Source: Acidimicrobiia bacterium (lineage in GTDB: Bacteria > Actinomycetota > Acidimicrobiia > Spongiisociales > JAHEDJ01). Taken from it: a stretch of 64,000 bases of DNA. The notes below the pieces were generated by a model, which was not told where the DNA came from, did not search any database, and saw only the letters and a list, made by a program, of their open reading frames with translations. How positions within the stretch are numbered: position 1 is the first letter of the stretch; each line of letters opens with the position of its first letter. This document shows positions 20,003 through 38,704 of this stretch, piece by piece. Both the position numbers and the translations under genes were made by a program. Location: the NCBI GenBank assembly GCA_029210695.1, contig JARGFH010000006.1, forward strand, positions 29,005 through 93,004, in the 5' to 3' direction.

Positions 20003-20060
20003 GTTCGCTCCTGAGCCAATAGCGGATCCGGTCGTCGGCCGAAGCCACCCAATTGCGACT

Positions 20061-20303
20061 CTACCGACGATCACCGACATGCGTTCGGGTGCGAGTCCGA
20101 TCCGAGCTCCTTCGTACCTCGGCGACACGAACCCGGTCTCGGATCCATTGTTCGACATCAGTCCACCGGTAGCGGACGTGCTTGCCCACCCGAAAGCCGA
20201 CGGGTCCCTCTCCCCGGTACCGCCACGCGTACAGCGTCTTGATCGGGACGTCGAGGAAGGCGGCGAGATCCTCAGCCGTAAGAAGGCGGTCGTCTTCGTT
20301 CAT
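20061..20303 (-). CDS. xis: excisionase/Xis-family HTH DNA-binding protein
   Basis: 80 aa. 'LLTAEDLAAFLDVPIKTLYAWRYRGEGPVGFRVGKHVRYRWTDVEQWI' is the classic Xis/MerR-like HTH. It lies immediately upstream of the integrase. Confidence 0.7.
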   Translation of the reverse strand: MNEDDRLLTAEDLAAFLDVPIKTLYAWRYRGEGPVGFRVGKHVRYRWTDVEQWIRDRVRVAEVRRSSDRTRTRTHVGDRR

Positions 20304-20496
20304 GGGCAGATCGTGGATGCTGACCCTTTCAGGGGAGTGCCATTTCGTTGTCGATTCCTACCCGCCAGCTCCCGCGCCCACGCAACGCCCACTAGCGCGC
20401 CGAGACCCCGAGTTCCCCAGGAGCACGTTGGGATTGGAGGGTTCTTGACAGGGCTACTGACACTCTGGTGACAGGGTTCGATGCAACTGTCTGCTC

Positions 20497-21729
20497 ATGG
20501 AGATGTCAGATCTTGCTATCCCGGGCGGCCCCACGCTGTGTTGGAGGGCTGCCGACATTGAAATGACAGGGCTGTCGCGTTGCCCCGCGGCAGGCGCCCC
20601 ATATCTCCTTGATGACATGATGCGAATATTTCTGCCCCACCCCCTGCTACCTCCGACGCGTAGTGTTGGTTCAGCGTCTGTGAAAGGTGGTAGCCATTTG
20701 AGCCCAGGGCGCTGGTCAATCGGGTTCGGCGACCTGCCCCGGCCGCCGTTTGTCGTTGGCGTCGCATTTGCGGCGCTGCTGATCCTTGGCGCCTGCACGT
20801 CGACCGGATCCACGGAATCCACGACGACATCGTCGACCGATCCGGTGTCGACCACTGGCGAAGCGTCCTCAACAACAACGCCGACGTCGCTCACGACCAC
20901 CACGACCCGTCCCTCCGAACAGGACGTGATCGCCGCATGGGGCGCGTACTGGAACGCATGGATCGATGTGCGGGCGTCCGATGACCTTGATCGGGGTCCT
21001 CTCGAAGCCGTTGCCTCCCCGGAGGTGGTCGATGGTGCTCTCACTCTGTTCGAGCGCCAACGCTCGTCTGGCCTTGGTCCGGTTCAAACCGAAGTCGCGT
21101 TGCACGCAGCCGTCACGACCTCGGACGCTGATCGGGCCACCGTCGAGGACTGCGTGCTCTTGGCACCATCGTTCACCGACGCCGTCGGCGTCTGGTACGA
21201 GGCGGATCTTATTCGAAGCGACAAGGGCTGGATCGTGGACGCCGTTCGTATCCCCAGAGCTGGCGGATGCGTTCCCAGGGCCATGGCCGAGGCAGCCATT
21301 GAGGGATATGAGGCCTTCTACGCGGGTTGGACGGACTACTGGGATCCAGCCGACCCCGAGTCCCCGATCATTGATCAAGTTCTTGCCGAGCCGCAGCTTG
21401 GTCTGGTCGTGGATCTTCTCTCTGATCACGAGGCTCGCGGAGCTGCGCTTCGGGGTCAACCCAGCCTGCACCCCGAGGTGATCGAGCTGCGCAGCCCGAC
21501 CGAACTCGTGATTCTCAGCTGCCTCGAGCCATCCCCCGATTACGGGCTTTATGACATTGATACGGGCGAGCGACTCGACGACGTGCCGGCCGTTCGGACC
21601 GGTCAAAGGAACCTCGAGTCAGCCGTGATGATTCTCGAGGACGGCCTGTGGAAGGTGTCCGACCTACAAGGGCAAGTGGATTTCGCATGCGAATTTGCTC
21701 CAACAGATCGCGGACTTCCGTCCGTCTGA
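20497..21729 (+). CDS. secreted lipoprotein, unknown function (start likely downstream of 20497)
   Basis: Hydrophobic signal plus lipobox 'ALLILGACTS', followed by a Ser/Thr-rich linker. Confidence 0.5.
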   Translation: MEMSDLAIPGGPTLCWRAADIEMTGLSRCPAAGAPYLLDDMMRIFLPHPLLPPTRSVGSASVKGGSHLSPGRWSIGFGDLPRPPFVVGVAFAALLILGACTSTGSTESTTTSSTDPVSTTGEASSTTTPTSLTTTTTRPSEQDVIAAWGAYWNAWIDVRASDDLDRGPLEAVASPEVVDGALTLFERQRSSGLGPVQTEVALHAAVTTSDADRATVEDCVLLAPSFTDAVGVWYEADLIRSDKGWIVDAVRIPRAGGCVPRAMAEAAIEGYEAFYAGWTDYWDPADPESPIIDQVLAEPQLGLVVDLLSDHEARGAALRGQPSLHPEVIELRSPTELVILSCLEPSPDYGLYDIDTGERLDDVPAVRTGQRNLESAVMILEDGLWKVSDLQGQVDFACEFAPTDRGLPSV

Positions 21730-22580
21730 GTCTCGCCATCGCCATCTCCGCGGCGGTGGTGCTCCAAGCCGCGCCGGCGTCTGCCAACCACTGCTCCGGC
21801 GAGGGTGACATCTATCAGGGCGGCGGTGATGTGGTTGCTGAGTGCCACGGCAAGACGCCGGGACGGCCTGGTGAGCGGACGGTTCATGAGACCTGGGACA
21901 TCTATTGCACCGCCGCAGTGGGCCCGTACCAGGAGGGTGATGAGGTCGAGTTCTATGCCACCGACGAGTTCACCGCGGGGGACGTGGAGCATCTTGGGTT
22001 CGATCCGACGGGGGAGTATTGGTGGTGGAACGTGACCTGCTGGCGGGATGGGGAGCCGGTCCATTCCCACGAGTTCGCGGTGGAGGTGACACCACCGGTG
22101 CCGCCTGAGGCGATCCGCGATGTGGCGGTGGCCCGTTTGGAACCGCCACCGCCTGTCCCGGAGACGAGTCCGCCCCTGGTCCAGCAGACATTCGTTGCTG
22201 TTCCGACATGGTTGTGGCTGGATCCGGCGTCCTGGTCGCCGGTCGAGGTTTCTGAGACTCGTGGGTTTACCACTGTGACGGTGCGGGCGACTCCGACTCA
22301 TGCCCGTTGGGTGATGGGCGACGGGGGTGGAGTCACATGTTTGGGGCCGGGTGTGGCGTGGACGTCCGGGGCTTCGGAGGACGCGACGGACTGTTCATAC
22401 ACGTATGAGCACTCGTCCTACGGCGAGCCGGAGGGCCGTTTCGAGGCGTCGGTGACGGTTACGTGGGAGTTCGAGTGGTGGATCAACGACGTCTACCAGG
22501 GAGTGTTCGGCACGGCTGATCTGAGCGCCGCATTCGGGGTGGCGGTCGGCGAGATCCAAGCGGTGGAGACAGGAGGATGA
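21687..22580 (+). CDS. secreted Cys/Trp-rich protein, unknown function
   Basis: Signal peptide 'RLSLAIAISAAVVLQAAPASA' followed by several Cys and Trp-rich repeats. It directly precedes cpaB. Confidence 0.5.
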   Translation: MRICSNRSRTSVRLSLAIAISAAVVLQAAPASANHCSGEGDIYQGGGDVVAECHGKTPGRPGERTVHETWDIYCTAAVGPYQEGDEVEFYATDEFTAGDVEHLGFDPTGEYWWWNVTCWRDGEPVHSHEFAVEVTPPVPPEAIRDVAVARLEPPPPVPETSPPLVQQTFVAVPTWLWLDPASWSPVEVSETRGFTTVTVRATPTHARWVMGDGGGVTCLGPGVAWTSGASEDATDCSYTYEHSSYGEPEGRFEASVTVTWEFEWWINDVYQGVFGTADLSAAFGVAVGEIQAVETGG

Positions 22581-22581
22581 C

Positions 22582-23277
22582 GTGACTCGGAGCACTACAA
22601 GCTCATCGATTGGGCGAGCGGACCCAGCTGGCGACGGCAAACTTGGTTCTGGCCCCTTCCGGTTGGAGCCGCCACGCCGCAGGGTGCAGGTGCCTCAGCT
22701 GCTGATCGCGGTGTTCGTGGTGGCGGTGAGCGCGCTGGTGGCGGTGGTGCTGTTCTCGGGTGCCGCCGCCCGAGAGCCCGTGCTGGCTCTCGCCGAGCCG
22801 GTGGAGAGGGGCCAGGTGATCTCCTCCGGTGACCTGATGGTGGTGTTTGTGGCGACCGACGACCCGATCACGACACTGTCGTCGGAGGCGGCGTCGGGGA
22901 TCGTGGGTCTGACCGCGGTGGCTGATCTGGAGGCGGGAACCATCCTCACCGGTGCGCATTTCGTTTCCCGGAGCGTCCTCGACGCCGGGGAGGGTGTGGT
23001 CGGGTTGGCGTTGTCGCCGGGCGAGTATCCGACGCTGCTGTTGGCGCCTGGTGACCGGGTGGACGTGGTAGTGACCGACGGGGGGTCGTCTGTTTCGGAT
23101 AGCACCAGCACCCGGGTGGTGGTCCGGTCAGCGGAGGTGTTCGATGTCGCCGAGCTGGGCACGCAGGGGGACCGGTTCATTTCGCTGCGGGTTCCGGCCA
23201 CCGCGGCTGCCGAGGTAGCTGGGGCAGCTGGGGCGGGTCAGGTTCGGTTGGTGTTGGTCGCGGGGGTCGAACGATGA
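22582..23277 (+). CDS. cpaB: Flp pilus assembly protein CpaB/RcpC-like (SAF domain)
   Basis: N-terminal TM 'LLIAVFVVAVSALVAVVLF' followed by a SAF-like beta-rich domain. Its position upstream of the TadZ/TadA genes supports the call. Confidence 0.6.
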   Translation: MTRSTTSSSIGRADPAGDGKLGSGPFRLEPPRRRVQVPQLLIAVFVVAVSALVAVVLFSGAAAREPVLALAEPVERGQVISSGDLMVVFVATDDPITTLSSEAASGIVGLTAVADLEAGTILTGAHFVSRSVLDAGEGVVGLALSPGEYPTLLLAPGDRVDVVVTDGGSSVSDSTSTRVVVRSAEVFDVAELGTQGDRFISLRVPATAAAEVAGAAGAGQVRLVLVAGVER

Positions 23278-24062
23278 GCCTGGTCTGTTTTGGTTCCGCC
23301 CACGGCGCTCCCGGGGTGACGACCACTGCATTGGCGGTGGCAGCGACCTGGCCGGAGCGTCGCTCCTGTCTGCTGGTGGAAGCTGACCCTTTCGGTGGGG
23401 TGATCGCGGCCCGGTACGGCCTCGGTGATTCCCCTGGGTTGTCTTCGCTGGCGGCTGTCGCTCGGCGGGAACTCGACGACGACGCGGTTTGGCAGTGCGC
23501 ACAGCAGCTACCCGGTGGGGTTCGGGTGCTGGTCGGTCCTGCCTCCGCCGACGAGGCTCATGCCGTGTTGGGGGATCTGGCCGGAGCATTCGCCGTCTGG
23601 TCCGCTGCCCAGACCGAGGTTGACGTGATCGTTGACTGTGGCCGGATGCCACCGGGTTCTGGCGTGATCGGTCCTCTGCTGGAGGCAGGAGTGGTGATGG
23701 TGGTGACACGCCCGTCGCTCGATCAGCTTCGACCTGCCGCCCATCGACGGGCGGCTCTCAAAGAATCCGGGATCGACGCCGGCTTGTTGTTGGTCGGTGA
23801 CCGGCCGTACGGGTCCGACGAGGTGGCCGCCGCGTTCGGTGCTGAAGTGGCCGGTGTGATCGCCTGGGATCCGAGGACGGCGGCTGTGCTGTCGGGCACC
23901 CATGGCGCGGTTCGCGACCTGCGCCGTTCCCTCCTTGTCCGATCGGCAGCCACGCTGGCGGCCAGCTTGGCGCCGCCCCGCGCCGTCCTCGATCAGGGTA
24001 TGGCAATGGTCCCCGCAGCGGAGGTTGTGGCGTCGAAGGTTGCAGAGGAGACGGGTTCGTGA
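23274..24062 (+). CDS. TadZ/CpaE-like ParA/MinD-family ATPase with deviant Walker A
   Basis: 'FGSAHGAPGVTTTALAVA' (a degenerate P-loop of the SsdA/CpaE type). Stop and start overlap its neighbours. Confidence 0.6.
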   Translation: MSLVCFGSAHGAPGVTTTALAVAATWPERRSCLLVEADPFGGVIAARYGLGDSPGLSSLAAVARRELDDDAVWQCAQQLPGGVRVLVGPASADEAHAVLGDLAGAFAVWSAAQTEVDVIVDCGRMPPGSGVIGPLLEAGVVMVVTRPSLDQLRPAAHRRAALKESGIDAGLLLVGDRPYGSDEVAAAFGAEVAGVIAWDPRTAAVLSGTHGAVRDLRRSLLVRSAATLAASLAPPRAVLDQGMAMVPAAEVVASKVAEETGS

Positions 24063-25366
24063 CCGGCAACAACGACCTGGGTGGGCGGCTGCACCGTGCG
24101 GTGGCAGAGAAGCTGTCCGAGCATCTCCGGACTCACGACGGGGATGCTCCGTTGAGCCTCGAAGACGAACGTGCCCTCACCCACTCACTGATCGCCGCCG
24201 AGCTGACCCAACTTACCGAGAACGCCTACCGGAACGGACAGACTCCTCTCGACCCGGCCACGGAGTCGGACCTGGCCGAGGCGGTTTTCCACCGGGTCCA
24301 CGGGCTGGGACGTCTCCAGCCATACATTGATGATCCGGACGTGTCGAACATCCATGTCAACGGTTTCGACAACGTGTGGCTCGTGTACCGGGACGGCACC
24401 AAGGTCCGAGGCGAGCCGGCCGCCGATTCGGACCGTGACCTGATCGACATGGTCGCCAGCGCCGCCCGCAGGATCGGACGCAGCGAGAAGCGTTGGGATC
24501 AGGTGTCGTGGGAGCTGCACCTGCAACTCCCGGGAGGTGAGCGCCTCCATGCGGTGATGGGGTTGACGGGTCGGCCGGCGATCACAATCCGCCGCCACGA
24601 CTTCAGTATCTACCGGCTCAAGCATCTCATCGAGCTGGGCGTGATCGACGAAGGGTTGGCCGAGTTCTTGGGGGCGGCGGTGAGAGCGAAACTGAACCTG
24701 ATCGTGGCCGGAGGGACGAACACCGGCAAGACGACGATGCTGCGGTGTCTCCTCAATGAGATTCCGCCGGATGAGCGGGTTGTCACCGTTGAGGACAACC
24801 TCGAGATCGGTTTAGACCGGTTCGCTGATCTCCACCCCGACCAGGTGATGTGGGAGCGCCGGGGTGCGAATATTGAAGGCCGAGGCGAAGCGTCCCTGGC
24901 TGATTGTGTGCGGGCGACGCTGCGTCAGAACCCCGACCGGGTGATCGTTGGGGAGATCCGCGGTGTCGAGGTGGTCGACATGCTGCGGGCCATGTCCCAG
25001 GGCAACGACGGTTCGATGTCCTCGATCCATGCCGACTCTTCCAAGGGAGCGATCGTTCGACTCGGCATGTACACGGCCGAAGCCGGTCTCGACGAGGAGA
25101 CGTCGAACAAGTGGATCGCCAACGCCGTGGACCTGATTGTCCACCTGGGATGGGTGGACGGCACCCGCCGGGTCACCAGCATCCGCGAGGTGTTGGAGGC
25201 GGAGCAGCGCCAGATCGCGACCAACGAGGTCTACCGACCGGCAGCCGACGGAAAAGCGGTACCGGCTCCCGGCCCGACCATCAGAAACGACACGCTGGCA
25301 CGACTGGTCGCCGCCAGCTTTGACGCCTCCTTCCTTTCGACCGCTTCTGGTTGGCGGCGAACATGA
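24059..25366 (+). CDS. tadA: TadA/CpaF secretion ATPase (VirB11/GspE superfamily)
   Basis: Walker A 'IVAGGTNTGKTTML', Asp box and Walker B 'RQNPDRVIVGEIRG', and a His box 'GSMSSIHAD'. Confidence 0.9.
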   Translation: MTGNNDLGGRLHRAVAEKLSEHLRTHDGDAPLSLEDERALTHSLIAAELTQLTENAYRNGQTPLDPATESDLAEAVFHRVHGLGRLQPYIDDPDVSNIHVNGFDNVWLVYRDGTKVRGEPAADSDRDLIDMVASAARRIGRSEKRWDQVSWELHLQLPGGERLHAVMGLTGRPAITIRRHDFSIYRLKHLIELGVIDEGLAEFLGAAVRAKLNLIVAGGTNTGKTTMLRCLLNEIPPDERVVTVEDNLEIGLDRFADLHPDQVMWERRGANIEGRGEASLADCVRATLRQNPDRVIVGEIRGVEVVDMLRAMSQGNDGSMSSIHADSSKGAIVRLGMYTAEAGLDEETSNKWIANAVDLIVHLGWVDGTRRVTSIREVLEAEQRQIATNEVYRPAADGKAVPAPGPTIRNDTLARLVAASFDASFLSTASGWRRT

Positions 25367-26223
25367 ATCTCCTCGTCGCCGCAGCCACCGGTGGTCTCAT
25401 CGGGTTCGGACTGTGGTTGGGCGTCACCGCGGTGAGAGGAATCAAGGTGGTACCCGATGCCCGCCGGCTGGTACCTGCGGCGGTACGGGCGGAACGGGCC
25501 ACCGCTTGGCTCGCCGGAGCACTGCTCACGGGCATCATCGTGGGACTGGTCACCGGGTGGCCAGTCGCGGGCATCGGCACCACCCTCGGCGTGCTGGCGG
25601 GACCTGCCGCTATGGGTGGCACCGCTCGGCGTGCACAGGAGACGGCTACCGCCGACGCCATCGCCACCTGGGCAGACATGATCCGCGACACCATGGCCGG
25701 AGCGTCGGGGTTGGAGGAATCACTCATCCAGACCGCCGCCGTCGCGCCAACCGCCATCCGAAGGCAGTTGCAGGCGTTCGCTCACCGGCTGCGCCATCAG
25801 CCCCTCGAAGCCGCCCTCGACGGTCTCGCCAATGATCTCAACCATTCATCCGCCGACCTGATCGTCGCTGCCCTGGCCGCTGCCGCCCGTCTCGAGGCCC
25901 GCGACCTCGGTGGGCTCCTCGCCCGTCTGGCCGAGGCCATCCGGGGAGACGTCCGGATGCGCACCCGCATCGAGATCGGCCGCGCCCGGATCAGAACCTC
26001 TGCCCGAATCGCAGTCGCCACGACCACTGCCACGGTCGTCTTCCTATACCTGTTCGCCGGCCACCTGTTGGAGCCCTACGACACCGCCGGCGGCCAAGTC
26101 TGGCTGCTGGTCGTCATGGCTGTGTTCTTCGGTGCTGGGGTGATGCTCCACCACTACAGCCAGCTCGAAGCACCAGAACGCTTCACCCTCCGCCACATCT
26201 CACACAAGGAGGCGCTCCGATGA
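25351..26223 (+). CDS. tadB: TadB-like type II secretion system F-domain membrane protein
   Basis: N-terminal TM helices, a central cytoplasmic T2SSF-like domain and C-terminal TM helices. Coupled to tadA. Confidence 0.75.
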   Translation: MAANMNLLVAAATGGLIGFGLWLGVTAVRGIKVVPDARRLVPAAVRAERATAWLAGALLTGIIVGLVTGWPVAGIGTTLGVLAGPAAMGGTARRAQETATADAIATWADMIRDTMAGASGLEESLIQTAAVAPTAIRRQLQAFAHRLRHQPLEAALDGLANDLNHSSADLIVAALAAAARLEARDLGGLLARLAEAIRGDVRMRTRIEIGRARIRTSARIAVATTTATVVFLYLFAGHLLEPYDTAGGQVWLLVVMAVFFGAGVMLHHYSQLEAPERFTLRHISHKEALR

Positions 26224-27134
26224 CGGTACTGGCGGTCATGGCCGCGGGTGGGGGGATCGGGCTCGGTGTCTTCTTGGCCGCCAGGGCGATGTTCCCTCGA
26301 CCGGTGCCACTCCAGAAGGCACTGGCGGATCTGGGGCGTCCCCGCCGGACACCCATCCAGGCCCACTCGGGGTCGGTGGCAGGGATGACCGGGCGGGCCG
26401 GCCAGATGGCTGTCCGGGTCATGGAAGCCACTGGACTGGTGGACCTGGGACACCTCGACCAGCGGCTGCGGGCAGTGGGCAAACCAATCGAAGCCCACGC
26501 CTACGAAAAGTTGGTGGGCGGACTCGCCGGACTGTTCCTCCCCCTCGGCTTCGCCACGGTGTTGGCCGTCGGGGGCGTATCGATGTCACCTGGGTGGGTA
26601 GCGGCCCTCGCCGTCGGGTTCGGTGTCGGCGGGTTCATGTGGCCAGACCTCGGATTGTCGGAGCGGATCGAACGTCGCCGGCGGGACTTCCGCCACTCCC
26701 TCTCCGCCTATCTCGATCTGGTCACCATCATCCTGGCCGGCGGAGGGGGGCTCGAAACCGCACTCCAGACCTCCGCCGACCTGGGCGAGGGGTGGGCATT
26801 CACCGAGATCCGGGCCGCCCTCCGCAAAGCGCAGGTCACCAACCGCACCCCATGGGACGTCTTCGACGAACTCGGTCAAGAGCTCGGCATCGACGAACTC
26901 CGCGAACTCGCCGCATCGGCTCATTTGGCTGGCGACCAGGGGGCGCGCATTCGGGCGTCCCTCGCCGCCAAAGCCGACTCCATGCGTGCAGCCCAGACCG
27001 CCGCTATCGAAGCCCAAGCCGAAGCCGCCACCGAGAAGATGCTCCTGCCGGTGGTGACCCTCGTCGTCGGGATGATCCTCTTCATCGGCTTCGGAGTCGT
27101 CCAAGCGATCTCCACGCCGGGGACGGTCCCATGA
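26220..27134 (+). CDS. tadC: TadC-like type II secretion system F-domain membrane protein
   Basis: Second T2SSF paralogue with TM helices at both ends. Stops and starts overlap. Confidence 0.75.
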   Translation: MTVLAVMAAGGGIGLGVFLAARAMFPRPVPLQKALADLGRPRRTPIQAHSGSVAGMTGRAGQMAVRVMEATGLVDLGHLDQRLRAVGKPIEAHAYEKLVGGLAGLFLPLGFATVLAVGGVSMSPGWVAALAVGFGVGGFMWPDLGLSERIERRRRDFRHSLSAYLDLVTIILAGGGGLETALQTSADLGEGWAFTEIRAALRKAQVTNRTPWDVFDELGQELGIDELRELAASAHLAGDQGARIRASLAAKADSMRAAQTAAIEAQAEAATEKMLLPVVTLVVGMILFIGFGVVQAISTPGTVP

Positions 27135-27183
27135 CACCACCGAAAGGAAACATCAAGCGTCTACAACACCGCACGATCCGCTA

Positions 27184-27414
27184 TTGGAAGGAGCGACTGA
27201 TATGACCGCCTACATCGAGTACACCCGCCTCCTCATCGAAGTCACCCTGGCTTCGGTCGGAGTCCGCCTCCGAGACGAGAAGGGAGCAATGTCGACCGAG
27301 GCAGCCGTCCTCACCGGCGTGCTCGTCGCCGTCGCCGTCGCCGCCGGGGTGATACTCATCGCCAAGATGCGATCCAACGCCGAAGCGATCCCCGACAACG
27401 TGCCCGCCCCCTGA
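27184..27414 (+). CDS. flp: Flp/Fap-family prepilin
   Basis: '...KG|AMSTEAAVLTGVLVAVAVAAGVILIA': Gly cleavage site, Glu at +5 and a hydrophobic stretch, as in Flp pilins. Confidence 0.55.
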   Translation: MEGATDMTAYIEYTRLLIEVTLASVGVRLRDEKGAMSTEAAVLTGVLVAVAVAAGVILIAKMRSNAEAIPDNVPAP

Positions 27415-27434
27415 TCGAGCCGAAGGCGCAGGTC

Positions 27435-27830
27435 GTGGTAACGATGACGAGGAGACGAACAGGCGAGGAGGGCCTCACCTCCACCGAACTGGCCGTGGTC
27501 ATGCCGGTGCTCATCGCGCTCGTGTTGGTCCCGTTTCAGATCGCGCTGTGGTGGCACGCCCATCAGGTCGCCGACGGCGCAGCTCGCGAAGCCGTCGACG
27601 CCGCCCAGGTCGTCACCGCCACCGACGGCGACGGGATCCGAGCGGCCGAATGGTTCCTCGACGCTGCTGGCAACCTCACCGACCCCCAGGTGACCGTCAC
27701 CCGCACCGCCGAGACCGTCACTGTCGAGATCACCGGACGGGCACCTCGGCTCATCCCCGGATTCGACTGGAGCGTGGCGGTTCGGGCGTCTGGTCCGGTG
27801 GAACGGTTCGTACCGGAGCCGGACCGATGA
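27435..27830 (+). CDS. TadE-like pseudopilin
   Basis: 'EGLTSTELAVVMPVLIALVLVPFQIALWW' is the TadE N-terminal motif. Confidence 0.65.
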   Translation: MVTMTRRRTGEEGLTSTELAVVMPVLIALVLVPFQIALWWHAHQVADGAAREAVDAAQVVTATDGDGIRAAEWFLDAAGNLTDPQVTVTRTAETVTVEITGRAPRLIPGFDWSVAVRASGPVERFVPEPDR

Positions 27831-28255
27831 TGCGGATTCGCGACGAACACGGGGCAGTCTCCACCGAATTGGCGGTGCTCACGCCGCTGCTGATCGGGTT
27901 CATGCTCTTGGTCGTGTTCGCGGGTCGGGTCGCCCAAGCAGAAGGCGACGTCGCCCACGCCGCCCACGAGGCGGCCCGAGCCGCCTCCCTCACCGCCACC
28001 CCGTCAGCAGCGGTGGAAGCCGCCCAGGCGACAGCCTTCGCCAACATCACCGAAGGTGGAGTGGCGTGCCGGACCCTCGACGTGTCCGTCGACACAACCA
28101 ACTTCGCAGCGGGAGGCCAGGTCGCCGTTGCCGTCACCTGTCAGGCGGCATTCGGTGATATCGCCATGCTGGCCGTTCCCGGAAGCCGTACCTTCACCGC
28201 CAACGCCATCGAGGTGGTCGACACCTACCGAGCAAACCCCCGGAGCGTCCCATGA
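27827..28255 (+). CDS. TadE/TadF-like pseudopilin
   Basis: 'EHGAVSTELAVLTPLLIGFMLLVVFAG'. ATGA overlap with the preceding gene. Confidence 0.65.
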   Translation: MMRIRDEHGAVSTELAVLTPLLIGFMLLVVFAGRVAQAEGDVAHAAHEAARAASLTATPSAAVEAAQATAFANITEGGVACRTLDVSVDTTNFAAGGQVAVAVTCQAAFGDIAMLAVPGSRTFTANAIEVVDTYRANPRSVP

Positions 28256-28641
28256 ACGAGCGTGGGGCCGTCTCCACGTTCCTTGCGGTCATCGCTCTTG
28301 CCCTGCTGATGGCAGCGGGGCTGGCAATCGACGGTGGCCGGAAAGTCAACGCCCTCAGGGAGGCGAGCCACTTGGCTGACAACGCCGCCCGGGCCGGCGC
28401 CCAAGCCGTCGACCTCGACGCCCTCCGCACCACCGGTGACCTTATGGTTGTTCCCGCCGGCGCTGTCGACCGGGTGGACCAGTACCTGACGGCCCTGGGG
28501 TATGCCGCCGCTGAGGTGGCCGTGATTGGTGACAGCGTCACCGTCACCGTCAGTCTCACCGTGGACCCCGTCCTCTTGCCCACCGGGCAGATGACCGTCT
28601 CCGCCACCGAAACTGCCACAGCAATCACCGAGGAGCCATGA
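28252..28641 (+). CDS. TadG/TadE-like pseudopilin
   Basis: 'ERGAVSTFLAVIALALLMAAGLAIDGGR'. Confidence 0.6.
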   Translation: MNERGAVSTFLAVIALALLMAAGLAIDGGRKVNALREASHLADNAARAGAQAVDLDALRTTGDLMVVPAGAVDRVDQYLTALGYAAAEVAVIGDSVTVTVSLTVDPVLLPTGQMTVSATETATAITEEP

Positions 28642-31600
28642 TGCGACACCTGAACAGCATGATCCGTGGCCTCGTAGCCCTCATCGTCGTTCTTGGATTC
28701 GTGATTGGGGTTCCGGCCGGTCTGATTGCCTACGTGGGGTGGCCGCTGCCTGACAGCCTTCCCACACTCGACCAGATCCAGCTCGGTTTCAGGAGCGGCA
28801 TCGACCCCCAACTCCTCATCAGCGTTCTGGCGGCGATCGTCTGGATCGTCTGGGCGCAACTCCTCATCGCACTGACAGCTGAAGTCGTCGCTGCTGCGCG
28901 AGGCAGAGCCGCCCGCCGCTTGCCCTTCATTCCGGGGCTACAACCGGCCGTCGCTCAACTTGTCGCCGCCATCACCCTCGCCACCGCCACCCTCGGTCCG
29001 CTCCACGCGGTACCAGCCACAGCAGCACCCCTCCCCATCGAAATGTCCGTGGCGTCGAGCTACCCGGTGGTCCGCATCGGCCAAGAACCAGCGACGCCCC
29101 GGTGGGCGAAGGCCGACTCCCAGCAGCAGACCGAAACCGAATTGCCGCGGTACCTGGTGACGCGACACGACACCCTCTGGCACATAGCCGAGTCGACCCT
29201 CGGCGACGGGCGCCGCTGGGCCGAGGTCCGGACCTTGAACGCTGGACGGGACATGCGTGACGGCCACCGCTTCACCGAGACAACCGAACGGCTTCACACG
29301 GGGTGGGAACTCATCCTCCCAGCGGATGCCACCACAGCGGCCACTGAGCCTCCCCCGCCAACAGCGGACGAGGTGACCGTGGTGGCGGGGGACAACTTCT
29401 GGACCATCGCCGAGACAACCCTCGCCGGCGCCTGGGGACGACCACCATCGAACGCGGAGACGGCCGAGTATTGGCGGACTCTCATCGACGCCAACCGCGA
29501 TCGGCTGGCGCCGCCGTACGACCCCGATCTCATCTACCCCGACCAACAATTCGAGCTGCCCCCAATCCCGGCCGACCCCAAGACACAGGCCGTCGCGCCG
29601 ATCCCCGATCACATCCCCTCGTCCGCCGATGGGGTCGTCGTCGAAGAGGGAGACAGCTTCTGGAGTATCGCTCAACAGGCCCTTACCAACGCCTGGGATC
29701 GAACCCCCAGCTCCGCCGAGACGACCAGCTATTGGCGTCGGATGGTCGATCTCAACCGGGACCGGCTGTCGCCACCACACGACCCCAACCTCATCTATCC
29801 CGGCCAGGTATTCCAGCTACCGGCCATACCCGAGTACCAACAAGCGCAGACCGAACCTGACACCGAACTCGATACGGCCTCCCCGCCGGAGACGCCACCA
29901 ACAGCCCGGGAGGAGACCGGCACCACACCGGATAACCCCACCTCTGACCTGCCACCCGCCACCACCCCGCTCCCCCCGAAGACAGACGAGCCGATCCCCA
30001 CCGATGCGACCGGAACCACATACGAGGCGCCGGCGTCTGCAGACCCAGCAGACGACACAGATGAACCTGACAGCGTCGACGACGGGAGCATTGCGGGGGA
30101 GCTGTTTCCCATGGCCAGCCGCCTGGCCGGCCTCGGGATCCTCGCGGCCGGTCTCGCCACCCTCCTCCGGCGCTTGCGTAACGCCCAACTCCGGCACCGC
30201 CGACCTGGCACCGTCCCCACCGCCCCACCACCTGACACGGCCAAGGTCGAATCGACGATCCGCAGCGCCGCCGCGCCCACCGCCACCGAGTTCATCGACC
30301 TCGCCCTGCGCTCCATGGCCCGTGACGTGACCGAATCCCACATCCCGCCGCCTCAGGTCGTGGGTGTCCACCTCACCGCCGACACCCTCCGGGTGCTGCT
30401 GTGGGCACCACACAAGGATCCGCCAGCTGGATGGGCCGCCGACGACGGTGGTCGTAGCTGGACCATCCCCACCGTCACCGACATCGATCGGCTCCGCACC
30501 GGATCCCGGGGAGTTCCCGCCCCCTACCCGGCCCTCGTTACTGCCGGGCACGGAGACCACGCCCAGCTCCTCTTGGACCTTGAGTACCTCGGAGCGACCC
30601 AAGTCACTGGAGAACCCACCGATGTGGCCGCCACCTGTTACACGATGGCCACCGAACTCGCCGCCACACCGCTCGCCGACGACCTTCAGATCATCTGCAT
30701 CGGCTTCGGAGACGAAATCGCCGACCTTGAACGCGTGACCGTCGTCGACCACCTCACCGAGGTGCTCCCAGCTCTGGAAGCCAAGGCGACAGCGGTCACT
30801 CGACTCGAATCCCAAGCACCGCTGGCCGGTCGGCTTTCCCCGGGTGCCGGGGACACCTGGAACCCGATCATCATCCTTGACCCGGCCACAGATCCCCCGG
30901 AGGAGGCACGCCAACTTCTCACCCTTGCCCACTCCGGTCGAGGAGTGGCAGCGGTTGTCGGCTACCCCACCGGAGACCGGTGGCGACTCCACATCAAGAA
31001 CGACACCGTACGGATCGACCCACTCGGCTTCACCTTCGCCCGCCGCAACCTCACACCGGTCGAGCAGGCCACCCTCGGCGACCTGGTCACCGCCGGCAAG
31101 GACCTCGAAGGTCTCCCCGCCGAACTCGCCACCGACCCGCTCCAACACATTGTCACGGACGAAGATCTGGGAGGACGGGCCGAGGTGGCAACGGAACCGG
31201 CGTTGTTCGATGAGGACCATGATATTGCGGTCGACGGCACTCCGATCCCAGTGCCGGAGATGAAGGTGCTAGGCACCCTCCATGTAGACGGGATCGACGG
31301 CCGCTTCCCGCTTCGCAAATGCACCGAACTCGTCGCCTACCTCACCTTCCACCGAGGCGGCGTCGAAGCCGACACCCTGATGGAAGCCCTCTGGCCCGAA
31401 CAGGCTCCGGAGTATCAACGTCTCAACCGCCACACCTCACGGACCCGCACCACCCTCGGCATTGGCCCCGACGGTGAACCCTACGTGGGGTACGTGAGCG
31501 ACGGGATCTACCGGCTCAGTTCCCATCTGCGAAGCGACATCGAACGCTTCACGGGCCACATTCGCCAAGCCGACCAGAATGAAAGAACCAACCAGACCCA

Positions 31601-32006
31601 GCACCTCTACGCCGCCCTCGACCTGGTGGAAGGAACACCGTTCAGCGGAGCCGGCAACGCCTACAACTGGGCCCATACCGACGGGATCATCACCCACGCC
31701 ATCGTCGCCATCGACAACGCTGCCCACCGCCTCGCCCAACACGCCCTCCAGGCCGATGACCCCGACCAAGCGACCTGGGCTGCCCGCAAGGGTCTGATCG
31801 CCACAGGAGCCTGCGAAGAGTGCTACCGCAACCTCATGCGAGCAGCTATCGCCGAAGGTAACCAAGTCGCCTTCGAAGCCACCTACACCGAACTACTCGC
31901 AGTGACCGACGCCGACGACGGACCCGACGGAGCGAGCTTCCTCGACCCGGCGACCATCGCCCTCTACGAACAGCACAATCGCAGCCGCAGACGTCATGCT
32001 GGCTGA
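28638..32006 (+). CDS. large membrane-anchored protein: 3x LysM + Pro/Thr-rich linker + SARP-like winged-helix/BTAD regulator domain
   Basis: Two N-terminal TM helices. Three LysM-like repeats ('YLVTRHDTLWHIAESTLGDGRRW', 'VTVVAGDNFWTIAETTL...RDRL', 'VVEEGDSFWSIAQQAL...RDRL'). A ~300-aa P/T/E-rich low-complexity region. C-terminal 'ELVAYLTFHRGGVEADTLMEALWPE' (OmpR/SARP trans_reg_C-like) followed by a BTAD/TPR-like helical domain. Confidence 0.7.
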   Translation: MMRHLNSMIRGLVALIVVLGFVIGVPAGLIAYVGWPLPDSLPTLDQIQLGFRSGIDPQLLISVLAAIVWIVWAQLLIALTAEVVAAARGRAARRLPFIPGLQPAVAQLVAAITLATATLGPLHAVPATAAPLPIEMSVASSYPVVRIGQEPATPRWAKADSQQQTETELPRYLVTRHDTLWHIAESTLGDGRRWAEVRTLNAGRDMRDGHRFTETTERLHTGWELILPADATTAATEPPPPTADEVTVVAGDNFWTIAETTLAGAWGRPPSNAETAEYWRTLIDANRDRLAPPYDPDLIYPDQQFELPPIPADPKTQAVAPIPDHIPSSADGVVVEEGDSFWSIAQQALTNAWDRTPSSAETTSYWRRMVDLNRDRLSPPHDPNLIYPGQVFQLPAIPEYQQAQTEPDTELDTASPPETPPTAREETGTTPDNPTSDLPPATTPLPPKTDEPIPTDATGTTYEAPASADPADDTDEPDSVDDGSIAGELFPMASRLAGLGILAAGLATLLRRLRNAQLRHRRPGTVPTAPPPDTAKVESTIRSAAAPTATEFIDLALRSMARDVTESHIPPPQVVGVHLTADTLRVLLWAPHKDPPAGWAADDGGRSWTIPTVTDIDRLRTGSRGVPAPYPALVTAGHGDHAQLLLDLEYLGATQVTGEPTDVAATCYTMATELAATPLADDLQIICIGFGDEIADLERVTVVDHLTEVLPALEAKATAVTRLESQAPLAGRLSPGAGDTWNPIIILDPATDPPEEARQLLTLAHSGRGVAAVVGYPTGDRWRLHIKNDTVRIDPLGFTFARRNLTPVEQATLGDLVTAGKDLEGLPAELATDPLQHIVTDEDLGGRAEVATEPALFDEDHDIAVDGTPIPVPEMKVLGTLHVDGIDGRFPLRKCTELVAYLTFHRGGVEADTLMEALWPEQAPEYQRLNRHTSRTRTTLGIGPDGEPYVGYVSDGIYRLSSHLRSDIERFTGHIRQADQNERTNQTQHLYAALDLVEGTPFSGAGNAYNWAHTDGIITHAIVAIDNAAHRLAQHALQADDPDQATWAARKGLIATGACEECYRNLMRAAIAEGNQVAFEATYTELLAVTDADDGPDGASFLDPATIALYEQHNRSRRRHAG

Positions 32007-32062: not shown

Positions 32063-32311
32063 GTGAGTGAGCCCACACTCGAAACTCAAATCCACCGGAT
32101 CCAGATGCAACTCGGGAACTGGCACGACAACCTCGCCACTCGCGTGGCCGGCGAAGCACAAGCGCTTTCTGACGAGATCAGCAAGCTGGCGGACCAGGAC
32201 GACGTCGAAGCAGTTGAGGCTCTGGTCCAGCGAGCACACGACCAGATCATGACCAGCTGCGACCTCCTGCGCGATCTGAGACGTCGACTCCAGGATCTGC
32301 CGAAACCATGA
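32063..32311 (+). CDS. small coiled-coil hypothetical protein
   Basis: 82-aa helical ORF. Its stop overlaps the ATG of a 34-codon fragment. Confidence 0.35.
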   Translation: MSEPTLETQIHRIQMQLGNWHDNLATRVAGEAQALSDEISKLADQDDVEAVEALVQRAHDQIMTSCDLLRDLRRRLQDLPKP

Positions 32312-32430: not shown

Positions 32431-33456
32431 CTACAAGTCAGGGGCCTGTGGCCGGGGGGAACTCCACTCATCCGGTATGTCGCGAATCGGCTTCCAAACG
32501 TGCAGCACTTCACCGTCGGTTCTTTCGGTGCCGCTATAGAGCGGCCCAGTGTTGAACCTGATGATCGGTCGCCTCCGAGCGAGCGGTAGGTGCTTGCCTT
32601 CGACGTTCTCTGGATGGAACGCAATGAGGCTTGTGCAGTGTCTTGCGATGTGCTCGTTGACGTTCTTGAGGCGACGAGGGCCCATCGTGCGAACACGCTC
32701 CGGACCTATGAGCCGGAGACTTATGAGACGCGTCCTATCGAGAGGAAGCCATATCTCGTCCGCGTCGTAGATCCCCACTCCCCGATAGGTGTCCTCTGGT
32801 GAGGGCAATGCCCAGATTGTGACTGGTCGGTCAGATGTGATGAGTTCGCCGTGCCGTGCTGCCTCAAGTGACCAGGCTCGCTGTTTGAGATGCTCGGCAA
32901 CCTGGAGGCCGAGATTGAACATCAGGTCGATGCGTAGCTGCGCTGTGTCCTCTCGGGTGGGGAAGTCAGGTTGCATTGCAGAGGCGTTGACGAAGTCACA
33001 GGCACCCTGGACTTCTGTCTCGTGGGGTTCAAATCCGAGCACATTTCGCTCCAGGTAATCTCTCATCGACTCAGGGTCTATTGGAGGATCACCGATCGCT
33101 TCTATGACGTCGTGAGTGAATTCGAAGCTCAAGACGTGATCGGGATCGCGCGCTAGCTGAACTCCCATGTACAGAGCGAGGGTATCCCGTTCGCCCGATC
33201 CGCTCGGCGGGAGGGTCCGCTCCTCATCGATACGGTCTAATACCTCTTTGGCATCCTCTTCCAATGCACCGAGGGTTTGTTCCGCGGTTAGGGGCTGTTG
33301 CGGCACCTTGTAGAGCCCGATCACAGCCATCACGTTGCGAGTGTTGGATAAAAAAGTGCTCCCGTCTCGCGACCTCACCGCCACCTGGTTCCGCTCGTTT
33401 GCGAACCGCTTCAGATATGACTGGGGCACAAAGTGATGGAGCTTCGGTTCACTCAT
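32431..33456 (-). CDS. DUF4238-family protein (defence-island associated)
   Basis: N-terminus 'LHHFVPQSYLKRFANE' is the signature start of DUF4238. Confidence 0.7.
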   Translation of the reverse strand: MSEPKLHHFVPQSYLKRFANERNQVAVRSRDGSTFLSNTRNVMAVIGLYKVPQQPLTAEQTLGALEEDAKEVLDRIDEERTLPPSGSGERDTLALYMGVQLARDPDHVLSFEFTHDVIEAIGDPPIDPESMRDYLERNVLGFEPHETEVQGACDFVNASAMQPDFPTREDTAQLRIDLMFNLGLQVAEHLKQRAWSLEAARHGELITSDRPVTIWALPSPEDTYRGVGIYDADEIWLPLDRTRLISLRLIGPERVRTMGPRRLKNVNEHIARHCTSLIAFHPENVEGKHLPLARRRPIIRFNTGPLYSGTERTDGEVLHVWKPIRDIPDEWSSPRPQAPDL

Positions 33457-33713: not shown

Positions 33714-35036
33714 CTATTTCTGCCGCTCGTCACCCTCGTCAACAAGATAAGTATGAGGTGCGACGACGGCAAGATGCCAACTTCCACCCTCGTCGTTGAG
33801 CGCCAGATTCCCCTCGTTGTCATAGCGGACCCACCGAAGCCGGAGATTCCCCGTGGTGCCGTCGATGGTCGCCTTACCTCTGGCCTCGGCCACGCATGAC
33901 TGCGTGTACTCGACTCGCTCGAGCACTACATCGGTGACTTCGTGCATGTCAAACCATGACTTCGCGTACTCGGCAGCCTGGCCAGCCGACTTATGGCCAA
34001 TGAGCTGAGGAGGCATGAGCGGCACGAGCTTTCCCCACTGCTTCTTCTGCCATGCCTCGAAGAACAGCTTCGATAGAGCGACCACCTCATCACTGTCGAA
34101 AGCTTCCCTCTCACGGCTTATGGTCCAGGGCTCGAACAGTTCTCGCGCCTTCTTCTTGCGGCCGTGCTCTGCGAGCCGGCCGAACGTCTCCCGCAACGTA
34201 GGTGGCGGTGGCTTAGTGTCTTCTGTGGCCTTCTTCGTGGTTGCGATGCTCCAGTCGACGACAGCGAAGAGGAGGTTCCAAGCCTTCGTCGCCACAACGA
34301 TGTTGTTGAAGTTCACGACGGAGCCGTGGACGATGCCGTGGCGGTGAACCTCGAACACCTCCTCATCGATTCGCTTCTTGATGGTCTTCAAGAACGGTTT
34401 CAATGCATTGGTGAGTCCCAAGTGATGGCCGGTCACGCTGTCCCAGGCGACCATCTCGTCGGCATCGCGAGCTGCGAGGCCCTGCCGCTCGCTTGCCTCG
34501 AAGTCGTTGACGAAGCCGTCCATCACTGAGATGAGAAGCAAGGTGCATGCATCGAAGCGCCCGGCGTCGTAGTCCTCCCGAGCCCTCACCAGCAAATGGT
34601 GGCGCTCACTCAGTCCGGGAACACCACGGAGTCTCAGCAGATGCCACTTTGTCGCTTCGGCGTCCCTGTACAACTCAATGAGTCGATGCTCTGCCTCATC
34701 CGGCGTGGAAGTCTCATCGAGGATGGCGTCGACTTCCCTGAGGTTCATCCAGTCGGTGAAGACCCAGTGGCGCGCCCCTAGGCGTTCGTAGAACGCATCG
34801 ACGCGATCGGCCATCTCGTTCATGCGCGTTTCCAGCTCGGCAATCTCGCTGCGCTTCTCGCGCATCACGAAGAATGTCAGGGCCTTGAACGCCTTGAGCT
34901 GCTGTCGCATCTCAACAAACGACGGCAGATCGTGTGCGGAGCGGTATGGGGACGTGCCCGATGAGTCGCTCGTGGTGCTATCCATTCCTGGATTGTATCG
35001 AACTAGTGTTCGGCTGAGCAGCCCCGCCTTCCTCAA
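33714..35036 (-). CDS. hypothetical protein with HEPN-like R-x4-H-G motif (start probably at Met 34985)
   Basis: 'EVHRHGIVHGSVVNFNNIVVATKAWNLLF'. It is divergent from, and shares this motif with, the neighbouring 35043..36188 gene. Confidence 0.5.
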   Translation of the reverse strand: MRKAGLLSRTLVRYNPGMDSTTSDSSGTSPYRSAHDLPSFVEMRQQLKAFKALTFFVMREKRSEIAELETRMNEMADRVDAFYERLGARHWVFTDWMNLREVDAILDETSTPDEAEHRLIELYRDAEATKWHLLRLRGVPGLSERHHLLVRAREDYDAGRFDACTLLLISVMDGFVNDFEASERQGLAARDADEMVAWDSVTGHHLGLTNALKPFLKTIKKRIDEEVFEVHRHGIVHGSVVNFNNIVVATKAWNLLFAVVDWSIATTKKATEDTKPPPPTLRETFGRLAEHGRKKKARELFEPWTISREREAFDSDEVVALSKLFFEAWQKKQWGKLVPLMPPQLIGHKSAGQAAEYAKSWFDMHEVTDVVLERVEYTQSCVAEARGKATIDGTTGNLRLRWVRYDNEGNLALNDEGGSWHLAVVAPHTYLVDEGDERQK

Positions 35037-38243: not shown

Positions 38244-38263
38244 CCCTCGATAGTGCGGTGAGA

Positions 38264-38297
38264 CCCTGTCAGCGGAGTGTCAGCGGCCCTGTCAGAG
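38264..38297. repeat. three tandem copies of (C)CCTGTCAG(C/A)G in the ardC-primase/relaxase divergent intergenic region; candidate oriT or operator
   Basis: 'ccctgtcagcgg agtgtcagcgg ccctgtcagag', with a fourth degenerate copy 'ggctgtccaga' at 38319. Confidence 0.5.
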
Positions 38298-38704
38298 ACC
38301 CTCCAACTCAGATCGGCCGGGCTGTCCAGATGCCGCTCATCGATTCGACTCCGCCGTATACCAGCGTTTTCAGGCCTCCGAGCAGAAACGCATGGGGTTG
38401 GCGTCCCGGTCGGGAATCGACTGACCGTGCGGCCGGCGGTTGGGCAGCACCGTCTCAGCACCCATGAGATTTCATTCCCGAACCGCTCGAATGGTCACGG
38501 GATGACAGGGTCCTCCTCCACGATCGGCCACATGAGCCAGATCGAACGAAGGAACGCGATGACAACCGAGCATCGCGACCACAGCAACACGACAGCGACC
38601 GCGACCAGCCCTGTCACCCGTCTCGCATCCAACCCCCCTCAGCGCCACACGCACGTGCAACAAGTTGCCTGGAGACTCCTGGCCGACCATTCGAGAGGGT
38701 CCGG

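Follow-up and report, generated by a model that had tools for sequence, protein, structure and literature searches.

A putative membrane-tethered SARP-type activator encoded at the end of a Tad pilus operon on an actinobacterial conjugative element

What is a protein that carries both cell-wall-binding LysM domains and a transcription-factor module doing at the end of a pilus operon? The question is raised by the open reading frame (ORF) 28638..32006 (+) in a 64,000-nucleotide stretch of DNA from an Acidimicrobiia bacterium (GenBank assembly GCA_029210695.1, contig JARGFH010000006.1, positions 29,005 to 93,004 of the forward strand), which was analysed as a whole and is called the window here. 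The 64-kb window is an integrative conjugative element (ICE). The ORF encodes, in a single uninterrupted frame, a protein of 1122 residues and is the final gene of a tightly packed Tad operon; since its ATG shares 4 nt (ATGA) with the stop codon of the TadG-like gene 28252..28641, it directly follows the Tad pseudopilins, as an initial annotation made from the sequence alone had stated. The protein is 100% identical to one from an Acidimicrobiia metagenome-assembled genome (MAG) that is named only 'LysM peptidoglycan-binding domain-containing protein'. We favor, with moderate confidence, the reading that it would be a membrane-tethered SARP-type activator of the transfer genes of the ICE, because the promoters of the pilus, primase, and relaxase genes contain repeat boxes in the style of SARP sites.

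Domain architecture and predicted topology

The segments of the gene, with the evidence for each in brackets (TM, transmembrane helix; AF2, AlphaFold2 model), are:

28638..32006 (+), gene of the membrane LysM / FtsK-like / SARP protein, at the end of the Tad operon (ORF; 163 homologs at E ≤ 1e-5)
28638..29003 (+), N-terminal three-helix membrane module, residues 1-122, with TM1 ~12-30, TM2 ~59-77, and TM3 ~104-122 (hydropathy, Lys/Arg counts, AF2)
29145..29327 (+), LysM domain 1, residues ~170-230, predicted extracytoplasmic (AF2; profile match to phage gp61 LysM, E 5e-7; weak Pfam match, E 0.14)
29370..29567 (+), LysM domain 2, residues ~245-310 (AF2; profile match to Kbp/YgaU LysM, E 5e-7; Pfam E 0.0043)
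29631..29837 (+), LysM domain 3, residues ~332-400 (Pfam E 1.6e-8 in the full protein, 1.6e-6 as a piece; AF2)
29838..30101 (+), acidic Pro/Thr/Glu-rich disordered linker, residues 401-488 (~90 residues), predicted extracytoplasmic (confidence score pLDDT <50)
30105..30173 (+), TM4, residues ~490-512, followed by the Arg-rich stop-transfer RRLRNAQLRHRR (hydropathy 1.63; AF2 helix; segment kept in the family consensus)
30180..31157 (+), cytoplasmic stalk helices and FtsK/EccC-like P-loop-fold domain without Walker A, residues 515-840 (Foldseek, profile)
31257..31532 (+), OmpR/SARP-type winged helix, residues ~874-965 (fold match to AfsR and EmbR; weak winged-helix profile matches)
31413-31460 (+), recognition helix, residues 926-941, QRLNRHTSRTRTTLG
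31536..32000 (+), BTAD, all-helical and TPR-like, residues ~967-1121 (Pfam E 0.0021-0.011, below gathering score; fold match)

The C-terminal module identifies the protein as a candidate regulator. A Foldseek search with the AF2 model matched the C-terminal ~257 residues to AfsR and EmbR (E 4e-7 to 9e-6, TM-target scores 0.47-0.69): AfsR 8k60_J/I gave E 4e-7 and 5.8e-7 (TM-target 0.66-0.69), AfsR 8hvr was also matched, and EmbR 2ff4/2fez gave E 4e-6 to 9e-6. As a fold, the winged helix is directly followed by an all-helical BTAD, which is the SARP arrangement. The family profile also finds, weakly, the winged helix-turn-helix (wHTH) domains of CadC, ToxR, TcpP, and VicR (E 0.006-0.5 for CadC/TcpP/ToxR). 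The recognition helix QRLNRHTSRTRTTLG retains the S-R-x-R-x-x-L-G pattern of SARP and OmpR proteins, with R937 and G941 at least 90% conserved, and its sequence varies among elements. This is the sole SARP/OmpR-type fold identified among the element proteins examined, and the other Tad operon proteins contain no recognisable DNA-binding domain by Pfam and inspection of their translations. The OmpR-type winged helix plus BTAD that the initial annotation proposed is therefore supported by fold (AfsR, EmbR) and by homologs; the Pfam scores, which do not support it, are weighed further below.

Two TM helices had been counted in the initial annotation. Hydropathy gives four hydrophobic helices (~12-30, 59-77, 104-122, and ~490-512), and the AF2 model of residues 1-520 places helices at 2-33, 57-87, 102-117, and 490-519. 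Two helices alone would leave the LysM repeats and the wHTH together on one side of the membrane; the missed TM3 and TM4 resolve this inconsistency. The charge distribution follows a positive-inside pattern, with RGRAARR past TM2, an acidic stretch ahead of TM4, and RRLRNAQLRHRR past TM4. In numbers, the N-terminus has 2 Lys/Arg and 0 Asp/Glu, the loop 33-58 has 1 and 3, the loop 85-99 has 4 and 0, residues 470-490 have 0 and 8, and residues 513-540 have 5 Lys/Arg. Hydropathy, charge, and the logic of LysM location together predict an N-in protein with four TM helices, in which residues ~123-489 are outside and residues 513-1122 are cytoplasmic. The topology check that had been proposed thus comes out, by hydropathy and charge, with the LysM domains predicted outside and the wHTH predicted in the cytoplasm. 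Within the membrane module, W72 is invariant in the family, and W69, E82, and Q102 are invariant or nearly so.

All three LysM domains of the initial annotation are predicted as LysM folds (pLDDT 93-97), whereas the NRDRL motif said to end each of them occurs only in LysM2 and LysM3, and not at their ends. LysM3 scores 34.8 bits in Pfam against a gathering score of 20.9, and LysM1 and LysM2, taken singly, stay under it. In a search of PDB structures, the closest folds to the LysM part are the three-LysM effector Ecp6 (E 1.7e-4) and then a T. thermophilus tandem-LysM endopeptidase. Disorder in this half of the AF2 model is found at residues 120-163 and 400-488. Searches of Pfam and NCBIfam with the whole protein and with pieces return only LysM and a sub-threshold BTAD, and no family for the N-terminal membrane module or for the mid domain.

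The mid domain had been taken for part of a ~300-residue Pro/Thr/Glu-rich linker. That linker shrinks to the ~90 residues 401-488, and a ~300-residue linker between LysM and wHTH is rejected, since the region is folded with pLDDT >90: residues ~545-840 form an FtsK/EccC-like domain. The AF2 model of residues 515-1122 has a pLDDT of 89.6 and a pTM of 0.84, with disorder only at 840-865. Foldseek matches the mid domain to FtsK (6t8g/2iut/2ius, E 4.5e-4 to 6.4e-4), ESX-5 EccC (7np7, 5.8e-4), TcpA, the coupling protein of pCW3 (6o1w, 2.8e-3), and an EccC5 DUF (8rin, 9.8e-3). Overall, the FtsK/EccC/EssC/TcpA matches run from E 4.5e-4 to 2e-2 at a probability of ~1.0 and with modest TM scores of 0.25-0.44, which indicates a P-loop alpha/beta fold of the FtsK-HerA type. 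By sequence, the family profile reaches EccC5 at a marginal E of 0.014, and hhalign of the profile against the window's own VirD4 gives nothing (probability 0.1). The Walker A motif GxxGxGK[ST] is replaced by TGEPTDV (family consensus GxPxxV), with no lysine in 20 diverse members inspected. Because the lysine is absent in all inspected relatives, the domain is a pseudo-ATPase, and it would be unable to bind or hydrolyse ATP in the usual way; an active translocase is rejected on the same grounds. At E ≤ 1e-3, 1458 clusters (50% identity level) contain the mid domain, and its position within these proteins of ~900-1250 residues is nearly always unchanged. Short matches to it were considered as LysM-less variants and rejected, as they are mostly gene fragments. 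The joining of an FtsK/EccC-like pseudo-ATPase with a putative transcription factor in one protein is new.

Candidate operators and their co-variation with the recognition helix

If the C-terminal module is a SARP, its targets should be recognizable. In SARP-dependent promoters, direct repeats lie 11 or 22 bp apart with 8 bp separating the 3' repeat and the -10 element, and the afs box is centred at -29.5 with weak -35 and -10 elements (PMC10936776). Four candidate sites were found in the window (related loci carry labels beginning with L):

20434..20477 (+), repeat box A, upstream of the Tad operon: TTGGAGGGTTCT TGACAGGGCTAC TGACACTCTGG TGACAGGGT
20541..20578 (+), repeat box B, partly degenerate, before the probable true lipoprotein start at ATG 20617/20620 (comparison with L090, L011, L092, L093, L095, L096)
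38263..38306 (-), ArdC-primase repeat box, near-identical to box A: TTGGAGGGTCTC TGACAGGGCCGC TGACACTCCGC TGACAGGGT
38503..38510 (+), single TGACAGGG unit, 29 nt before ATG 38532 of a 59-codon ORF overlapping the TrwC start, with CACGAT between them

The Tad and ArdC-primase boxes are direct repeats of TGACAGGG/TGACACTC with a periodicity of 11-12 nt. All 9 copies of these 8-mers in the window are confined to the two regulatory regions, and a 31-nt pattern of three units has exactly two occurrences there, where chance predicts 0.00. The last unit of box A begins 28 nt before ATG 20497, with AACTGT at -12..-7, and the last unit of the ArdC box begins 28 nt before GTG 38243, with CACTAT at -12..-7; in both, the 8-mer of the proximal unit ends 8 bp from an nAnnnT hexamer at -12..-7. 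Box A is conserved in L096, L090, L011, and L095, and L090 and L011 have the single unit before the 59-codon ORF at the corresponding position. In an alignment of 13 related ArdC-primase promoters on the conserved start codon, all 13 had A at -11 and T at -7, and they carry three to five upstream repeats at 11-12-nt spacing with the proximal 8-mer 8 bp from the hexamer. The candidate boxes 20434-20477 and 38263-38306 thus fit the SARP-promoter geometry (PMC10936776) exactly, and they are conserved in 13 related elements and are putative binding sites of this protein. Scans of both regulatory regions for sigma-70 consensus found no -35/-10 pair, no promoter, and no terminator. The boxes look like promoters of leaderless transcripts in which repeats replace the -35 region, with putative transcription starts. 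Together with the SARP fold, the predicted topology, and the conserved place of the gene in actinobacterial Tad loci, these SARP-type boxes in the element's promoters strengthen the idea of the initial annotation that a DNA-binding module is tethered to the membrane behind cell-wall-binding domains, where it might connect pilus or envelope status with transcription.

In more distant loci, possible repeats were noticed: AGATTG three times upstream of the Tad operon of Rhodococcus pREL1 (L009, 3170-3225), (G/T)AGACAC twice, 22 nt apart, in Microbacterium pYJNG (L008, 3820-3850), and CAGAGGTG five times just downstream of the homolog gene on a Streptomyces plasmid (L017, 13714-13800).

The boxes might serve something other than transcription. 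FtsK and TraB are ordered as membrane anchor, linker, P-loop domain, and C-terminal winged helix, an architecture that the 1122-residue protein parallels with its FtsK-like domain, and its family is confined to plasmids and ICEs. It could be imagined as an FtsK/TraB-type DNA-docking device, with the repeats acting as cis transfer or tethering sites like clt/TRS of Streptomyces TraB and the DNA held at the membrane for transfer or uptake; Tad pili of Micrococcus luteus do serve DNA uptake (as cited in PMC5696575). We consider this very improbable. Walker A is absent in all inspected members, leaving no motor; instead of an FtsK gamma domain there is an OmpR/SARP-type winged helix with a BTAD; and the repeats, accompanied by a conserved -10-like hexamer, keep fixed positions in the promoters of three operons.

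The link between the boxes and this particular protein comes from comparison of related elements. The exact TGACA triple was absent from the first 89 loci gathered, because the repeat units differ between elements, and within one element they are mostly identical across promoters. Residues 930-935 of the recognition helix change along with the unit. TGACA(GGG/CTC) goes with RLNRHT(S/Y)R(T/A)R in the window, L090, L096, L098-L101, and the ArdC box of L011, so that NRHT..R and TGACA are paired in at least 8 elements. Elsewhere, TGAAAGGG goes with RLNLHT (L095) and RLNILT (L103), TGAGA with RLNRHTSATRSV (L091), TGCGAG(T/G)G with R(L/I)HDLMYRARR (L092, L093), TGG(G/C)AGAC with RLNKLAYRARR (L094), and GTTGGTGYGTC with RGPRYISDARGS (GPRYISD at the helix; L002). 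The base-contacting residues of AfsR are T88 and R92 (PMC10936776). When anchored on the S-R-x-R motif rather than by superposition, the variable positions 931 and 935 of our protein would be equivalent to these two. The co-variation is supportive and not conclusive, because the classes are few and probably monophyletic and L011 is an exception.

The repeats could also be genuine operators of another, unrecognised element protein, the 1122-residue protein then regulating something else or its SARP module being a relic. Several conserved element ORFs lack a Pfam match, any regulator and operator that diverge together would produce such a pattern, and the correspondence of helix and unit has exceptions. 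On the other hand, head-to-tail repeats at 11-12 nt, in which 8 bp separate the 3' unit and the -10, are a signature specific to SARPs, and the only SARP/OmpR-type fold identified among the proteins examined is the one described here. Moreover, the changes at position 931 appear chemically sensible for a base-reading residue, with Arg paired with G:C and Leu/Ile with A:T. We therefore regard another binder as rather improbable.

Family distribution, proposed mechanism and rival roles

Acidimicrobiia MAGs contain full-length relatives at 45-70% identity, and distant ones at 25-40% occur in Streptomyces, Kitasatospora, Actinacidiphila, Krasilnikovia, Nitriliruptoraceae, and Propionibacteriaceae. 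A tblastn search returned 207 plasmids with a homolog (Streptomyces 130, Rhodococcus 29, Curtobacterium 8, Micrococcus 6, Cutibacterium 6, Microbacterium 5, and others). A scan of contigs keyed on a LysM peptide was less selective, its 80 loci being mostly unrelated LysM proteins with only about 17 family members. As the initial annotation had suggested checking, Tad loci of relatives do carry the gene: in about 28 of the 31 informative loci it directly follows TadE-TadE-TadG and closes the same Tad gene order. Its place within the Tad operon is thus conserved in relatives, the loci spanning Acidimicrobiia, Streptomyces, Rhodococcus, Microbacterium, and Cutibacterium. Rhodococcus erythropolis pREL1 and Microbacterium pYJNG show the same synteny, and plasmids from at least 6 genera carry the gene in this position.

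Such a fixed position would suit a structural subunit of an envelope-spanning Tad, or type IV secretion system (T4SS), machine in monoderm actinobacteria. The LysM domains would then be a peptidoglycan anchor, the TM bundle would meet the pseudopilins or the platform, the FtsK-like ring would dock the ATPases, and the SARP/BTAD part would be a TPR-like protein-protein module. The gene is the last of a structural operon with overlapping stop and start codons, next to TadE-TadE-TadG from Acidimicrobiia to Cutibacterium; LysM proteins such as TsaP are known parts of pilus machines, and the profile matches TsaP at E 1.3e-5; an FtsK/EccC fold is typical of secretion machines; and the N-terminal TM module is highly conserved. 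The TadE/TadG/giant module is also retained next to T4SS genes in L025 (Streptomyces sp. NPDC057426, 665-13435), where TcpC, VirB4, and VirB6-like genes are followed by TadE-TadE-TadG and the gene, with no TadABC between, which suggests that a pseudopilin-plus-giant module can be attached to a Gram-positive-type T4SS. Despite these points, a primarily structural subunit seems unlikely to us. The DNA-reading pattern of the wHTH is kept family-wide, the element has repeat boxes of SARP geometry whose sequence changes along with the recognition helix, and in L007 the gene heads a Gram-positive-type T4SS operon (TcpE, VirB4, VirB6-like, SLT, VirD4) without any Tad genes. A gene that stands beside a Gram-positive-type T4SS without TadABC (L007, L025) fits a transfer-gene regulator better than a Tad-specific structural part. 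The regulatory and structural roles are not mutually exclusive.

No homology to a named Tad/Rcp protein (TadA-G, TadV, TadZ, RcpA-C, Flp) was found, Pfam and NCBIfam giving only LysM and a weak BTAD. The family is auto-annotated and has been tabulated once, and no characterisation was found in the searchable literature. In the table for the C. acnes plasmid pIMPLE-HL096PA1 (PMC3666418), PAGK_2369 stands after three TadE genes with the Pfam entries 'LysM, BTAD' and the label 'TadB'; this label is unsupported, as Pfam and NCBIfam give no Tad homology. The protein is not mentioned in a later paper on C. acnes Tad plasmids (PMC5696575).

Several observations weigh against a transcriptional activator. 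At the sequence level, Pfam BTAD (PF03704) scores 16.5 bits in the full protein and 18.9 bits in the C-terminal piece against a gathering score of 22.1, Pfam Trans_reg_C (PF00486) has no match at E ≤ 1 in the 1122-residue protein, and phmmer of the C-terminal 258 residues against PDB sequences finds neither a SARP nor OmpR. A crude scan of upstream regions in distant Streptomyces and Kitasatospora shows no clear periodic repeats; the self-match periodicity scan is swamped by 12-nt coding periodicity and is of little use beyond close relatives. The co-variation rests on about 4-5 classes that are probably monophyletic, any other element-encoded factor would co-diverge likewise, and there are exceptions: L011 has TGAAA at its Tad box and TGACA at its ArdC box with one helix, and L091 has TGAGA yet keeps R931. 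Conserved ORFs without assigned function are at hand (the 82-residue helical protein, the 59-residue ORF, 33714-35036, 35043-36188, and 42106-42927). Three LysM domains and an FtsK-like domain are not obviously needed by a regulator, and the last place in a structural operon, always beside pseudopilins, is also expected of a machine component. As to the first point, a C terminus that fails to score as Trans_reg_C/BTAD had been named in the initial annotation as grounds for dropping the assignment, and at Pfam thresholds that is formally what was found; the fold and homolog evidence rescues it. Relatives do reach BTAD, with PF03704 precomputed for about 30 among the 120 homologs listed, 22.2 bits for the L025 homolog, and 41 bits for another homolog, P0219.

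The preferred reading, that of a membrane-tethered activator, suggests the following mechanism. The LysM domains and the acidic linker would lie outside against the peptidoglycan, with the SARP module and the FtsK-like domain inside. Several copies, probably held together by the FtsK-like domain, would bind the repeats head-to-tail; the repeats would take the place of the -35 region in the Tad operon and ArdC-primase promoters, with a single unit before the TrwC operon, and the bound copies would recruit RNA polymerase as AfsR does. The mode of action would be AfsR-like at the promoter and ToxR/TcpP/CadC-like in acting at the membrane. As the Tad operon contains the protein's own gene, positive feedback would result. 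More speculatively, the pseudo-ATPase could provide oligomerisation or regulation, as NB-ARC does in larger SARPs, and the LysM/TM part with its constant neighbours, the TadE/TadG pseudopilins, would be the likely input, reporting the status of the envelope, the pilus, or the mating contact. A tentative extension, to which we give a fairly low probability, is a conjugation contact sensor in one polypeptide: LysM/TM and TadE/TadG would report engagement of the pilus or the cell wall, a pseudo-ATPase ring would set the oligomeric state of the SARP module, and the ICE promoters together with the protein's own gene would be switched on.

Comparison with known systems shows what would be new. Known SARPs are soluble proteins that activate antibiotic gene clusters. 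The present protein resembles them (AfsR, EmbR, ActII-ORF4, DnrI) in having an OmpR-type winged helix followed directly by BTAD, in candidate target sites that obey the direct-repeat/8-bp rule and overlap a poor -35, and, like medium and large SARPs, in joining the SARP module to a P-loop-fold domain. It differs in that the module is C-terminal (residues ~874-1121) behind four TM helices and three LysM domains, whereas SARPs are soluble with an N-terminal SARP module; in that the P-loop domain is of the FtsK/EccC type without Walker A and not NB-ARC/STAND; in its context of conjugation and pili instead of antibiotic clusters; and in a sequence similarity below Pfam thresholds. A 2024 review describes all SARP classes (small, medium, large, SARP-LAL) as soluble with an N-terminal SARP, and the word 'membrane' is absent from it (PMC10972967).

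The predicted topology would put a cytoplasmic wHTH, TM segments, and an extracytoplasmic domain into one polypeptide, as in ToxR, TcpP, and CadC, where a membrane-tethered winged helix is likewise combined with an extracytoplasmic domain that presumably supplies the input; the domains stand in reverse order, and the sequence relation is limited to the wHTH fold. ToxR/TcpP/CadC regulators also bind direct repeats near promoters. Unlike them, the present protein has an N-terminal sensor and a C-terminal wHTH, four TM helices instead of one, a BTAD with a pseudo-ATPase, and a LysM ectodomain. With FtsK/SpoIIIE/TraB/EccC/TcpA, it shares the fold of residues ~545-840 and the placement of this domain just below a TM helix and stalk, but it has no Walker A lysine, only marginal sequence similarity, and a single domain that is not a motor. 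PAGK_2369 and the LysM proteins of actinobacterial plasmids share the site after three TadE genes and the Pfam pair LysM and BTAD, at only 25-35% identity, and the literature gives no topology, FtsK-like domain, target sites, or function for that group. TsaP/FimV-type LysM pilus components are similar in being LysM proteins encoded with a type IV filament system; TsaP differs as a periplasmic, secretin-associated diderm protein without TM bundle, P-loop domain, or DNA-binding module.

If the activator reading is true, a membrane-embedded SARP family of 1458 clusters would extend SARPs to the control of horizontal gene transfer and pili, and the predicted boxes and specificity residues would provide a testable regulator-operator pair for T4SS-type conjugation in Actinomycetota, a process that is poorly understood. 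If the contact-sensor reading is true, it would represent a new class of transmembrane SARP signalling that is widespread on actinobacterial plasmids and ICEs, including the Tad plasmids of Cutibacterium acnes. Homologs occur in medically or industrially relevant hosts, namely on C. acnes Tad plasmids, Rhodococcus megaplasmids, and Streptomyces linear plasmids.

The Tad operon and the host element

The rest of the Tad operon (20617..28641, +; Pfam, ORFs, translations, synteny) consists of:

20617-21729 (+), lipoprotein
21648-22580 (+), secreted protein
22582-23277 (+), CpaB/RcpC
23274-24062 (+), TadZ-position protein
24059-25366 (+), TadA/CpaF ATPase
25351-26223 (+), TadB
26220-27134 (+), TadC
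27184-27414 (+), Flp pilin
27435-27830 (+), TadE (first)
~27824-28255 (+), TadE (second)
28252-28641 (+), TadG-like

ATG 20497, which lies 28 nt past the start of the proximal unit of box A, opens a short ORF. Its counterpart in L090 is a separate ORF of 40 codons with an ATGA overlap with the lipoprotein gene, and in the window it continues in frame into the lipoprotein gene, giving a 410-residue ORF in which ~90 residues precede the lipobox signal peptide (LILGAC). The real lipoprotein start is likely ATG 20617/20620. The secreted 310-residue protein encoded at 21648-22580 (+) has no Pfam match and is kept upstream of CpaB in nearly all Tad loci of the same type, at 25-87% identity from Acidimicrobiia to Streptomyces and Rhodococcus.

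Other genes of the element are:

18836-20158 (-), tyrosine integrase
20061-20303 (-), HTH_17 excisionase
32063..32311 (+), 82-residue all-helical protein, conserved directly downstream of the 1122-residue protein gene in Acidimicrobiia elements
36294-38243 (-), ArdC-primase fusion, putative regulon partner (Pfam; repeat units in the intergenic region shared with the TrwC side)
38532-38710 (+), 59-residue ORF, putative regulon partner
38705-41824 (+), TrwC relaxase-helicase, putative regulon partner (Pfam)
42924-54913 (+), BREX-like defence system (about 42.9-54.9 kb)
57598-59361 (-), VirD4 coupling protein
60056-61258 (-), M23/SLT cell-wall hydrolase
61255-62751 (-), TrbL/VirB6
62748-63998 (-), VirB4 (AAA_10)

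With T4SS genes at 57598-63998 and the Tad locus on one element, the ICE therefore combines a T4SS with a Tad (type IV) pilus system. The all-helical protein directly downstream of the 1122-residue protein gene has no Pfam family; it measures 82-92 residues among the elements (L092 13415-13663, L094 13396-13674) with a conserved RVAGEAQAL ... LRDLRRRLQ, and may partner or modulate the regulator. A DUF4238 protein (32431-33456, -; E 3e-31) is encoded between the Tad operon and the ArdC-primase gene; related elements do not conserve it, and it is therefore probably cargo.

The ArdC-primase gene is next to TrwC in all related elements. Its product combines an ArdC N-terminal part (anti-restriction, ssDNA-binding), a weak M78-peptidase match, and a DnaG-type primase made up of DNAG_N, Toprim, and DnaB_bind. 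The stop codon of the 59-codon ORF 38532-38710 (+) and the TrwC start overlap (ATGCTGA). Small ORFs of a similar kind stand before TrwC in L091 and L093, and the product of 38532-38710 may be a relaxosome accessory protein. The BREX-like system comprises a BrxB-like protein (42924-43484), a BrxC-like ATPase of 1169 residues, a PglX-type methyltransferase (46945-50142), a 775-residue protein, and, at 51920-54913, a BrxL Lon-like protease with a fused C-terminal Ser/Thr kinase domain.

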